A stretch of 64,000 bases of DNA from Escherichia coli. Its GTDB lineage: Bacteria > Pseudomonadota > Gammaproteobacteria > Enterobacterales > Enterobacteriaceae. This document shows, piece by piece, positions 2,282-51,463 of the stretch; position 1 is the stretch's first letter, and every line of letters begins with the position of its first letter. The notes beneath the pieces were generated by a model. That model worked only from the letters and a program-made list of their open reading frames with translations. It did not search any database and was not told where the DNA came from. The stretch lies in NCBI RefSeq assembly GCF_003334255.1, contig NZ_QOWU01000011.1; one strand, 5' to 3'. The translations under genes and the position numbers were made by a program.

Positions 2282-3571
2282 ATGGAAACGACTCAAACCA
2301 GCACGATTGCGTCGAAAGACTCTCGTAGTGCCTGGCGCAAGACAGACACCATGTGGATGCTGGGCCTTTACGGCACGGCAATCGGCGCGGGCGTGCTGTT
2401 CCTGCCAATCAACGCCGGTGTTGGCGGTATGATCCCGCTGATCATCATGGCTATCCTTGCGTTCCCGATGACGTTTTTTGCTCACCGCGGCCTGACTCGC
2501 TTCGTACTGTCTGGTAAAAACCCGGGCGAAGACATCACCGAGGTTGTAGAAGAACACTTTGGTATTGGCGCAGGTAAACTGATTACCCTGCTCTACTTCT
2601 TCGCTATCTACCCGATCCTGCTGGTTTATAGCGTGGCAATCACCAATACCGTTGAAAGCTTCATGTCTCACCAGCTGGGTATGACGCCACCGCCGCGTGC
2701 GATTCTGTCGCTGATCCTGATCGTGGGTATGATGACCATCGTTCGCTTCGGTGAGCAGATGATCGTTAAAGCGATGAGTATTCTGGTATTCCCGTTTGTT
2801 GGCGTACTGATGCTGCTGGCTCTGTACCTGATCCCGCAGTGGAACGGCGCTGCACTGGAAACGCTGTCTCTGGACACTGCATCTGCAACCGGAAACGGTC
2901 TGTGGATGACCCTGTGGCTGGCAATTCCGGTAATGGTGTTCTCGTTCAACCACTCTCCGATCATCTCTTCTTTCGCCGTTGCGAAGCGTGAAGAGTACGG
3001 CGATATGGCAGAACAGAAATGCTCGAAGATCCTGGCATTCGCACACATCATGATGGTGCTGACCGTAATGTTCTTCGTCTTCAGCTGTGTACTGAGCCTG
3101 ACTCCGGCAGACCTGGCTGCGGCTAAAGAGCAGAACATCTCGATTCTGTCTTACCTGGCTAACCACTTTAACGCACCGGTTATCGCGTGGATGGCTCCGA
3201 TTATCGCGATTATCGCTATCACCAAATCCTTCCTCGGTCACTACCTGGGCGCACGTGAAGGCTTCAACGGTATGGTGATTAAATCTCTGCGTGGTAAAGG
3301 TAAGTCTATCGAAATCAACAAGCTGAACCGTATCACTGCGCTGTTCATGCTGGTAACGACCTGGATTGTTGCCACCCTGAACCCGAGCATCCTGGGTATG
3401 ATTGAAACCCTGGGCGGTCCAATCATCGCGATGATCCTGTTCCTGATGCCGATGTACGCAATTCAGAAAGTACCGGCAATGCGTAAGTACAGCGGTCACA
3501 TCAGCAACGTATTCGTTGTCGTGATGGGTCTGATTGCAATCTCCGCAATCTTCTACTCTCTGTTCAGCTAA
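2282..3571 (+). CDS. sdaC: Serine:H+ symporter (HAAAP family)
   Basis: 429-aa polytopic membrane ORF with GGAG RBS; recognised as SdaC; followed by sdaB. Confidence 0.95.
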
Positions 3572-3628
3572 GTCCTTTCGCGCCGCTTTCGGGCGGCGCT
3601 TCCTCCGTTTTAACGCGATGTATTTCCT

Positions 3629-4996
3629 ATGATTAGCGTATTCGATATTTTCAAAATCGGCATTGGCCCTTCCAGTTCTCATACCGTTGGACCAATGAAA
3701 GCGGGTAAACAATTTACCGACGATCTGATTGCCCGTAACCTGCTTAAAGACGTGACCCGCGTGGTGGTTGACGTGTACGGCTCGCTCTCTCTGACCGGTA
3801 AAGGCCACCACACTGATATCGCCATTATTATGGGCCTGGCGGGTAACCTGCCGGATACCGTGGATATCGATTCCATCCCCAGTTTTATTCAGGATGTGAA
3901 TACTCATGGTCGCCTGATGCTGGCAAACGGTCAGCATGAAGTGGAGTTCCCGGTTGATCAGTGCATGAACTTCCACGCCGACAACCTTTCTCTGCATGAA
4001 AACGGTATGCGCATTACCGCGCTGGCGGGCGATAAAGTCGTTTACAGCCAGACTTACTACTCTATTGGCGGTGGCTTTATCGTTGATGAAGAGCATTTTG
4101 GCCAGCAGGATAGCGCACCGGTTGAAGTTCCTTATCCGTACAGTTCAGCAGCCGATCTGCAAAAACATTGTCAGGAAACCGGGCTGTCACTCTCTGGCCT
4201 GATGATGAAAAACGAGCTGGCGCTGCACAGCAAAGAAGAGCTGGAACAGCACCTGGCGAACGTCTGGGAAGTCATGCGCGGCGGTATTGAGCGCGGTATT
4301 TCCACCGAAGGCGTGTTGCCTGGCAAACTGCGCGTTCCACGCCGTGCTGCGGCACTACGCCGGATGCTGGTCAGCCAGGATAAAACCACCACTGACCCGA
4401 TGGCGGTTGTTGACTGGATCAACATGTTTGCACTGGCAGTGAACGAAGAGAACGCTGCTGGCGGTCGCGTGGTGACTGCGCCGACTAACGGTGCGTGCGG
4501 GATTATCCCGGCAGTTCTGGCGTACTACGACAAGTTTATCCGCGAAGTGAACGCTAACTCACTGGCTCGTTACCTGCTGGTAGCCAGCGCCATTGGTTCT
4601 CTTTATAAGATGAACGCGTCGATTTCTGGTGCTGAAGTGGGTTGCCAGGGTGAAGTTGGCGTGGCGTGCTCAATGGCGGCGGCTGGTCTGGCAGAACTAT
4701 TAGGCGCAAGCCCGGCGCAGGTGTGCATCGCGGCGGAAATCGCCATGGAGCACAACCTCGGTCTGACGTGTGACCCGGTCGCCGGACAGGTACAGGTGCC
4801 ATGCATCGAGCGTAACGCCATTGCGGCAGTAAAAGCGGTGAACGCCGCACGTATGGCGCTGCGCCGTACCAGCGAGCCGCGCGTCTGCCTCGATAAAGTT
4901 ATCGAAACCATGTACGAAACAGGTAAAGATATGAACGCCAAGTACCGCGAAACCTCTCGCGGCGGCCTGGCAATGAAGATCGTTGCCTGCGATTAA
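3629..4996 (+). CDS. sdaB: L-serine dehydratase 2 (Fe-S)
   Basis: 455-aa ORF recognised as SdaB; sdaCB operon arrangement. Confidence 0.95.
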   Translation: MISVFDIFKIGIGPSSSHTVGPMKAGKQFTDDLIARNLLKDVTRVVVDVYGSLSLTGKGHHTDIAIIMGLAGNLPDTVDIDSIPSFIQDVNTHGRLMLANGQHEVEFPVDQCMNFHADNLSLHENGMRITALAGDKVVYSQTYYSIGGGFIVDEEHFGQQDSAPVEVPYPYSSAADLQKHCQETGLSLSGLMMKNELALHSKEELEQHLANVWEVMRGGIERGISTEGVLPGKLRVPRRAAALRRMLVSQDKTTTDPMAVVDWINMFALAVNEENAAGGRVVTAPTNGACGIIPAVLAYYDKFIREVNANSLARYLLVASAIGSLYKMNASISGAEVGCQGEVGVACSMAAAGLAELLGASPAQVCIAAEIAMEHNLGLTCDPVAGQVQVPCIERNAIAAVKAVNAARMALRRTSEPRVCLDKVIETMYETGKDMNAKYRETSRGGLAMKIVACD

Positions 4997-16748: not shown

Positions 16749-16954
16749 ACTTCCTGAGCCGGAACGAAAAGTTTTATCGGAATGCGTGTTCTGGTGAACT
16801 TTTGGCTTACGGTTGTGATGTTGTGTTGTTGTGTTTGCAATTGGTCTGCGATTCAGACCATGGTAGCAAAGCTACCTTTTTTCACTTCCTGTACATTTAC
16901 CCTGTCTGTCCATAGTGATTAATGTAGCACCGCCTAATTGCGGTGCTTTTTTTT
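16749..16954 (+). ncRNA. gcvB: GcvB small regulatory RNA (Hfq-dependent)
   Basis: ACTTCCTGAGCCGGAACGAAAAG... matches remembered GcvB; TATAGT -10 at 16737-16742; GU-rich seed at about 16812-16845; internal and terminal hairpin plus U-tract terminators. Confidence 0.85.
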
Positions 16955-19948: not shown

Positions 19949-20046
19949 GCCTGATGCGCTACGCTTATCAGGCCTACATAACTCCTGCAATATTTTGGAT
20001 TTGCATGATTTGTAGGCCGGATAAGGCGTTCACGCCGCATCCGGCA
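19949..20046. repeat. BIME: two REP elements in the tcdA-mltA intergenic region
   Basis: gcctgatgcgctacgcttatcaggcctac (19949-19977) and gtaggccggataaggcgttcacgccgcatccggca (20012-20046), both classic REP. Confidence 0.75.
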
Positions 20047-21439: not shown

Positions 21440-21516
<77 letters not shown>

Positions 21517-46501: not shown

Positions 46502-49868
<3,367 letters not shown>

Positions 49869-49933
49869 TCAGTAAAAGCGAATGGAGGGAGATTACACGA
49901 GATAAAGAACGCGAGCGACAGTAAATTAGGTGC

Positions 49934-50022
49934 GAAAAAAAACCTGCGCATCCGCGCAGGTTGGTGCAAGAGACAGGGTACGAAGAGCGTACCGAATAAT
50001 CTCACCAATCAATACCTCTGGG
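49934..50022 (-). ncRNA. omrA: OmrA small RNA (OmpR-regulated, Hfq-dependent)
   Basis: Reverse complement reads CCCAGAGGTATTGATTGGTGAGATTATTCGGTACGCTCTTCGTACCCTGTCTCTTGCACCAACCTGCGCGGATGCGCAGGTTTTTTTT, matching remembered OmrA. Confidence 0.85.
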
Positions 50023-50136
50023 ATCTTGATTGTGGTCTGCACGACGACTCTTCGCCAGCGAGAAAACGCAAAGGAATGAAGGGAAATGCAACGAGGTGTG
50101 TAAATTGTCGGTTACTGTTACAGATTGATGACCGGC

Positions 50137-50218
50137 AAAAAAAACCTGCGCATCTGCGCAGGCTGGTGTAATTCATGTGCTCAACCCGAAGTTGACTTCA
50201 CCTATCAATACCTCTGGG
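50137..50218 (-). ncRNA. omrB: OmrB small RNA (paralogue of OmrA)
   Basis: Reverse complement reads CCCAGAGGTATTGATAGGTGAAGTCAACTTCGGGTTGAGCACATGAATTACACCAGCCTGCGCAGATGCGCAGGTTTTTTTT; shares 5' and 3' ends with OmrA. Confidence 0.85.
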
Positions 50219-50401
50219 ATCACCACTTTAGCAACCTGAAGCCAAACGCCACCAGCGGTCAATCGCAACAGCGTTTCGCAAAGTGTAACCAAAGGTTTGC
50301 AATCTCTTTTTTTGTCTTACTTATTTGCGTTTGGCTCACATTCCCACGATGAAAACACGCCACCCCTTGAACCAACGGGCGTTTTCCGTAACACTGAAAG
50401 A

Positions 50402-50417
50402 ATGTAAGCGTTTACCC
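50402..50417. promoter_or_regulatory. GalR/GalS operator-like palindrome upstream of galR
   Basis: aTGTAAgCGtTTACcc resembles the gal operator consensus (GTGnAAnCGnTTnCAC); sits 15 nt before the galR start. Confidence 0.35.
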
Positions 50418-50431
50418 ACTAAGGTATTTTC

Positions 50432-51463
50432 ATGGCGACCATAAAGGATGTAGCCCGACTGGCAGGCGTTTCAGTCGCCACCGTTTCCCGCGTCATTAAT
50501 AATTCACCCAAAGCCAGCGAAGCTTCCCGGCTGGCTGTGCATAGTGCAATGGAGTCTCTTAGCTATCACCCGAACGCCAACGCCCGTGCGCTGGCGCAGC
50601 AGACCACTGAAACGGTCGGTCTGGTCGTTGGTGATGTTTCCGATCCGTTTTTCGGTGCAATGGTGAAAGCGGTCGAACAGGTGGCTTATCACACCGGTAA
50701 TTTTTTATTGATTGGCAACGGTTACCACAACGAACAAAAAGAGCGTCAGGCCATTGAGCAACTGATCCGCCATCGCTGTGCTGCGTTGGTCGTCCATGCC
50801 AAAATGATCCCGGATGCTGATTTAGCCTCATTAATGAAACAAATGCCCGGTATGGTGCTGATCAACCGTATCCTGCCTGGCTTTGAAAACCGTTGTATTG
50901 CTCTGGACGATCGTTACGGTGCCTGGCTGGCAACGCGTCATTTAATTCAGCAAGGTCATACCCGCATTGGTTATCTGTGCTCTAACCACTCTATTTCTGA
51001 CGCCGAAGATCGTCTGCAAGGGTATTACGATGCCCTTGCTGAAAGTGGTATTGCGGCCAATGACCGGCTGGTGACATTTGGCGAACCAGACGAAAGCGGC
51101 GGCGAACAGGCAATGACCGAGCTTTTGGGACGAGGAAGAAATTTCACTGCGGTAGCCTGTTATAACGATTCAATGGCGGCGGGTGCGATGGGCGTTCTCA
51201 ATGATAATGGTATTGATGTACCGGGTGAGATTTCGTTAATTGGCTTTGATGATGTGCTGGTGTCACGCTATGTGCGTCCGCGCCTGACCACCGTGCGTTA
51301 CCCAATCGTGACGATGGCGACCCAGGCTGCCGAACTGGCTTTGGCGCTGGCGGATAATCGCCCTCTCCCGGAAATCACTAATGTCTTTAGTCCGACGCTG
51401 GTACGTCGTCATTCAGTGTCAACTCCGTCGCTGGAGGCAAGTCATCATGCAACCAGCGACTAA
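50432..51463 (+). CDS. galR: Galactose operon repressor (LacI family)
   Basis: 343-aa ORF with LacI-type HTH (MATIKDVARLAGVSVATVSRVINN); recognised as GalR. Confidence 0.95.
   Translation: MATIKDVARLAGVSVATVSRVINNSPKASEASRLAVHSAMESLSYHPNANARALAQQTTETVGLVVGDVSDPFFGAMVKAVEQVAYHTGNFLLIGNGYHNEQKERQAIEQLIRHRCAALVVHAKMIPDADLASLMKQMPGMVLINRILPGFENRCIALDDRYGAWLATRHLIQQGHTRIGYLCSNHSISDAEDRLQGYYDALAESGIAANDRLVTFGEPDESGGEQAMTELLGRGRNFTAVACYNDSMAAGAMGVLNDNGIDVPGEISLIGFDDVLVSRYVRPRLTTVRYPIVTMATQAAELALALADNRPLPEITNVFSPTLVRRHSVSTPSLEASHHATSD

Follow-up and report, generated by a model that had tools for sequence, protein, structure and literature searches.

What occupies the intergenic region between aas and galR in this Escherichia coli genome? 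From the letters alone, the original prediction saw a tandem pair of paralogous sRNA genes here, OmrA and OmrB, both on the minus strand. We followed this up in the window (the whole 64-kb stretch of DNA that was analysed) and in related genomes. We conclude, with a probability of about 98%, that the locus carries the paralogous, Hfq-dependent, trans-acting sRNAs OmrA and OmrB, each as an independent minus-strand transcription unit. OmrA and OmrB are a textbook case of sibling sRNAs: they reshape the outer membrane, alter motility, biofilm formation and iron uptake, and exert feedback on EnvZ-OmpR. The pair is already known, fully characterised and annotated, and the window adds no new biology to it.

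Identity and boundaries of the two genes

The entire window was scanned with the Rfam 15 covariance models. Two elements between aas and galR match RF00079 (OmrA-B), for which the gathering score is 40, with 96.6 bits (OmrA, E = 6.4e-18) and 86.1 bits (OmrB, E = 2.3e-15). Both matches are full length and untruncated, covering model positions 1-87 of 87, so the interpretation survives the Rfam comparison that had been proposed as its check. The same scan found no envelope-related Rfam family other than RF00079 at the locus.

Comparison with E. coli K-12 MG1655 settles which copy is which. The locus (minus strand, 49700-50500 region) is 100% identical to MG1655 across 801 bp. This 801-bp omr region is also 100% identical in many complete E. 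coli genomes, including C600, and was found in 5424 of 5426 complete E. coli genomes. The curated MG1655 record NC_000913.3 lists the ncRNA features omrA (b4444, 2976102-2976189) and omrB (b4445, 2976304-2976385), both on the minus strand and both between aas (b2836) and galR (b2837). A single offset of 2,926,167 places the aas start (49847), the two sRNAs and the galR start (50432) exactly on NC_000913.3 features, and this constant-offset mapping identifies the 88-nt copy by aas as OmrA and the 82-nt copy by galR as OmrB (Table 1). In sequence, lengths, strand, spacing, flanks and promoter motifs the locus is identical to K-12 OmrA/OmrB (RF00079; formerly RygA/RygB, SraE); relative to MG1655, the window differs only elsewhere, where it has one tRNA-fMet gene rather than three.

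The prediction of two minus-strand sRNA genes placed between aas and galR thus holds, as both copies match RF00079 over its full length, coincide with b4444 and b4445, and lie between these genes by gene coordinates as well as by the NC_000913.3 features. The predicted span of 49934-50218 is correct at its end but one base too low at its start: position 49934 is a C lying just past the U-tail, and the first base of the span is 49935.

Table 1. Features of the omr locus, with positions numbered along the window and promoter positions (in parentheses) numbered from the annotated 5' ends
Feature	Position	Strand	Description
aas	47688..49847	-	Downstream of omrA, same strand
omrA gene	49935..50022	-	88-nt sRNA OmrA; copy adjoining aas; maps to b4444
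OmrA Rho-independent terminator	49935..49962	-	9-pair stem, GGAU loop, U8 tail (terminator scan)
OmrA 5' seed, nt 1-21 CCCAGAGGUAUUGAUUGGUGA	50002..50022	-	Target-pairing region; nt 1-16 single-stranded in predicted fold
omrA -10 element CACAAT (-12..-7)	50029..50034	-	C at -12 and -13; sigma-S-type signature
Conserved omrA promoter boxes, whole span	50062..50123	-	16-species alignment
omrA box TTCATTCCTTTGCGTTTTC (-58..-40)	50062-50080	-	16-species alignment
omrA box TTTACACACCTCGTTGCATTT (-82..-62)	50084-50104	-	16-species alignment
omrA box CTGTAACAG (-101..-93)	50115-50123	-	16-species alignment
omrB gene	50137..50218	-	82-nt sRNA OmrB; copy adjoining galR; maps to b4445
OmrB Rho-independent terminator	50137..50164	-	9-pair stem, AGAU loop, U8 tail (terminator scan)
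OmrB 5' seed, nt 1-21 CCCAGAGGUAUUGAUAGGUGA	50198..50218	-	Same evidence as OmrA seed
omrB -10 element TAAAGT (-12..-7)	50225..50230	-	Sigma-70-type T at -12
Second omrB box GCTGTTGCGATTG (-54..-42)	50260..50272	-	Conserved in cross-species alignment
omrB box AACCTTTGGTTACACTTTGCG (-79..-59)	50277..50297	-	'Box B2' of the literature, OmpR/RstA-type; contains T-75 and A-68
galR	50432..51463	+	Divergent from omrB; 213 bp from omrB transcription start

Shared ends, divergent centres and RNA fold

The two sRNAs share their ends and differ in between, as had been noticed from the letters. Their 5' ends are identical over the first 15 nt (15/15) and nearly so over the first 21 (20/21), and 31 of the last 34 nt are the same, whereas the central segments (33 nt in OmrA, 27 nt in OmrB) are unrelated in sequence. 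An exact copy of the shared 15-mer CCCAGAGGTATTGAT stands at each of the two 5' ends (50008-50022 and 50204-50218) and nowhere else in the window; about 0.11 matches would be expected by chance even with two mismatches permitted. The conserved 5' sequence of RF00079, CCCAGAGGUAUUGAU, is present without change in both copies. From the OmrA 5' end to the OmrB 3' end the gap measures 114 bp, close to the 'about 115 bp' of the original prediction.

Both terminators have a G+C-rich 9-pair stem and a 4-nt loop, in the form CCTGCGC-NNNN-GCGCAGG followed by eight T. Judged from sequence, this hairpin with its U8 tail is the architecture expected for Hfq binding. The other features of RF00079, an outer GGUG/CACC helix and a central hairpin, are likewise found in both copies along with the CCUGCGC-NNNN-GCGCAGG terminator and U-run. 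Folding energies are low relative to dinucleotide shuffles (minimum free energy -29.5 kcal/mol, z = -2.68 for OmrA; -26.6 kcal/mol, z = -2.91 for OmrB). The family architecture, as given by the Rfam consensus and by the OmrA minimum free energy fold, runs from an unpaired 5' end through the outer helix and the central hairpin to the terminator. In the Rfam consensus the shared 5' end of either copy is free of pairing, as it is in the OmrA fold; in the minimum free energy fold of OmrB, part of it is weakly paired.

Conservation and synteny across Enterobacterales

How widely is this arrangement kept? The 15-mer was scanned against one genome per species (298 Gb of contigs). Because so short a key was searched against 298 Gb, most matches are chance occurrences in unrelated phyla, and only the Enterobacterales loci (~32) were retained, from which ~50 Omr-like genes of 75-110 nt were taken. 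In the resulting 31-sequence alignment nt 1-15 are the search key, invariant by construction, and are not independent evidence. Outside the key, positions 17-20 and the CACC of the outer helix are invariant in all 31 sequences, and the five positions that follow the 15-mer are nearly invariant across the Enterobacterales set. The terminator stem shows three compensatory double changes in these 31 sequences (U-A to C-G, G-C to A-U and C-G to U-A), and none of its eight core pairs is broken. The OmrA-type central hairpin is conserved as GUAC/GUAC, and the OmrB central hairpin is kept, with differing stem sequences, in 10 of 10 orthologues folded singly. RNAalifold returned no OmrB central helix, an artefact of the MAFFT alignment of mixed OmrA and OmrB types, in which the variable centres are misaligned; single folds show the hairpin.

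In roughly 30 Enterobacterales loci the pair, or only one omr gene, is found, and the gene order is galR, omr, aas. Searches by tblastn with the Aas and GalR of the window recovered the full order galR (divergent), omrB, omrA, aas in E. albertii, Citrobacter, Enterobacter, Kosakonia, Pluralibacter and Edwardsiella. OmrA is 88 nt long in E. coli, 87 nt in Citrobacter and 86 nt in Enterobacter. Several species have a single Omr copy (loci L027, L028, L037, L068 and L080). The single or chimeric OmrAB sRNAs of other Enterobacterales (Erwinia amylovora OmrAB, Yersinia OmrA) have the same 5' seed, GGUG/CACC helix, terminator and aas-adjacent position. They differ in being present as one copy (or as two ~2 kb apart in Pantoea) and in having other central hairpins, whereas the window has the canonical tandem arrangement of Enterobacteriaceae.

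Some of these loci have features of their own. In Pantoea, two Omr-family genes are non-adjacent and ~2 kb apart (at 2747 and 4789 in L030, and at 647 and 2680 in L059); a 579-aa ORF (2936-4675) that by eye resembles a penicillin-binding protein or FtsI-type transpeptidase lies between them in L030. The lone Omr gene of Enterobacter sp. BIGb0383 (L027, 8853, minus strand) looks chimeric, with A at nt 16 as in OmrB and an OmrA-type GGUACG...CGUACC hairpin, and it fits the 'chimera' class described in the literature (PMC13425233). Some 2.9 kb separate it from aas, a stretch that includes two inserted ORFs of 277 aa and 437 aa.

Promoters and regulation

Promoter positions were numbered from the annotated 5' ends (50022 for omrA, 50218 for omrB), and the -10 elements were read by position and checked against the literature. 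Of the 16 species aligned, 14 keep CCACAATCAA, the sequence around the omrA -10 element. The difference between C at -12 in omrA and T at -12 in omrB is the published basis of the sigma-S dependence of omrA and the sigma-S independence of omrB (PMC12692685). Scanning 49600-50600 for generic sigma-70 promoters gave none upstream of omrA or omrB, as expected because the omr promoters are weak and activator-dependent and have poor -35 elements.

Further upstream, each promoter has conserved boxes of its own, as seen in alignments of 15-16 species. The OmpR boxes, whose inspection the original prediction had recommended, were compared with published mutational positions only. At omrB, TTACA(C/G/T)TTTGC within AACCTTTGGTTACACTTTGCG is nearly invariant in 15 species, and T-75 and A-68 are located in the GGTTACA of this promoter in the window. 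Mutation of T-75/A-68 abolishes activation by RstAB and lowers activation by OmpR from 81-fold to 3.3-fold (PMC13425233). Box B1 is also required at the omrB promoter (PMC13425233), and we infer that it is the same as the conserved GCTGTTGCGATTG. At omrA, conserved sequence is found upstream of -60. In vitro, OmpR-P activates both promoters from templates spanning -114..+50, but an omrA promoter truncated at -60 is not activated (PMC5175337), and the part that responds to OmpR is thereby assigned to the conserved boxes upstream of -60.

Do other regulators act here? The idea that conserved boxes beyond those for OmpR, sigma-S and RstA bind further regulators, giving the siblings separate inputs, is already in the literature; we regard it as possible, if rather doubtful. 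The main candidates, all conserved across species, are GCTGTTGCGATTG at omrB and the omrA boxes at 50062-50080 and 50115-50123.

Target pairing and proposed mechanism

Duplexes between nt 1-24 of each sRNA and the ompR leader, taken from NC_000913.3, were computed and compared with those formed by shuffled seeds. In both sRNAs nt 1-9 (CCCAGAGGU) pair with ompR -19..-11 (ACCUUUGGG), overlapping the Shine-Dalgarno sequence, and this is the published pairing. The OmrA-ompR duplex has an energy of -19.4 kcal/mol against a shuffled mean of -11.4 (fraction of shuffles at least as good, 0.008), and the OmrB-ompR duplex -19.0 kcal/mol against -11.0 (0.002). In published experiments OmrA and OmrB both bind Hfq, cirA is no longer regulated when hfq is mutated, RNase E is required for the ompT and cirA mRNAs to decay, and no tested target, ompR among them, is still controlled once the shared 5' end carries a mutation (PMC2588501).

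A mechanism can be proposed along these lines. OmpR-P, together with sigma-S for omrA and RstA for omrB, would switch on the two independent transcription units. With the assistance of Hfq, for which the terminator hairpin and U-tail would be the binding module, the shared 5' end (nt 1 to ~21) would pair with target mRNAs in or close to the ribosome-binding site. As a result, mRNAs for envelope, iron-uptake, curli and flagellar functions would be blocked in translation and undergo RNase E-dependent decay; published targets include cirA, ompT, fecA, fepA, csgD, flhDC, flgM, dgcM and ompR. The divergent central hairpins would give each copy targets of its own, for example btuB for OmrA, and repression of ompR-envZ would close a negative feedback loop on OmrA/OmrB synthesis. 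None of the known OmrA/OmrB target genes is within the 64-kb window.

Other Hfq sRNAs that are activated by OmpR or remodel the envelope (MicF, MicC, RybB) and other sets of sibling sRNAs (Qrr1-4, the RyhB paralogues) work by a like principle: a 5' seed, Hfq, a U-tailed terminator, silencing of mRNAs for outer-membrane proteins, and duplicated genes whose distinct promoters integrate different signals. To our knowledge, none of these sRNAs has a sequence or structural family relationship to OmrA/OmrB.

Alternative explanations

So, could the two elements be something other than a pair of working sRNA genes? The region is intergenic and both 3' ends are textbook terminators, as they would be if the elements were mere duplicated Rho-independent terminators, or an intergenic repeat, without sRNA function. 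But the covariance-model matches are full length and extend beyond the terminator, a strongly conserved 5' module lies upstream of it and outside it, and each copy has a conserved promoter with a positioned -10 element; moreover, there is no upstream minus-strand gene to terminate, galR being divergent. We give this explanation practically no weight, and no more to the proposal that the region encodes small proteins. ORFs of 30-55 aa do occur across it, among them two minus-strand ones of 38 aa (49926-50042) and 55 aa (50009-50176), but indels of 1 and 2 nt among close relatives inside the transcribed region would break any frame, and the conservation is of the RNA type, with invariant ends, covarying stems and a freely varying centre.

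A slightly less improbable, though still very unlikely, alternative accepts the sRNA identity and questions the independence of the copies: one would be functional and the other a decaying duplicate, or both would be carried on one dicistronic transcript from the omrB promoter. Several species hold one copy only, so one can suffice, and the genes are co-oriented and 114 bp apart. Yet in more than 14 species both copies keep the seed, an intact terminator and distinct conserved promoter boxes of their own, and the strong OmrB terminator stands upstream of the omrA promoter. The literature describes individual units under differential control, by RpoS for omrA and RstA for omrB (PMC13425233, PMC12692685), and published northern blots and promoter fusions contradict a decaying copy or a joint transcript. 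Taken together, these rival explanations share only the very small remainder of probability beside that given to OmrA and OmrB as two independent sRNA genes.

Other RNA features of the window

The window also encodes GcvB (16749-16954, plus strand), with a full-length RF00022 match of 199 bits; this is gcvB (b4443), adjoining gcvA. It maps to NC_000913.3 with a different offset because of a 220-bp difference at a tRNA locus. There, between mltA and amiC, the window has one initiator tRNA-Met(CAU) gene (21440-21516, plus strand), whereas MG1655 (NC_000913.3) has three in tandem, metZ-metW-metV, with a period of 110 bp, and the window is 220 bp shorter than MG1655 at this place. An identical single-copy arrangement occurs in the complete genomes of the laboratory K-12 derivatives J53, ME8067, C3026 and 'MG1655p' and of some wild isolates; two copies are present in many other strains. 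The single copy could be a real polymorphism that arose by unequal recombination, or a repeat collapsed in assembly.

A match to RF02751 (ES036 / CssrF sRNA) at 19970-20012 on the minus strand scores 46.5 bits against a gathering score of 37.6. The offset puts it between tcdA and mltA, in the intergenic region immediately downstream of mltA and on the strand of that gene; the element may be derived from a 3'-UTR or a terminator.

Significance for annotation

The identity, boundaries, structure, conservation and synteny of the genes, their promoter motifs and their complementarity to ompR are established in the present analysis; expression, the dependence on Hfq and RNase E, and control by OmpR, RpoS and RstA are taken from the literature on OmrA/OmrB. 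The PGAP-annotated K-12 record NZ_CP032667.1 lists only aas and galR in this region and leaves omrA and omrB out, whereas the curated NC_000913.3 lists both. Their omission from NZ_CP032667.1 is an annotation gap and not evidence that the genes are absent. More generally, PGAP-style annotations can omit omrA and omrB, and an unlisted gene should not be read as a missing one. Correct annotation is the sole importance of the result: it keeps the intergenic region between aas and galR from being treated as unexplained.
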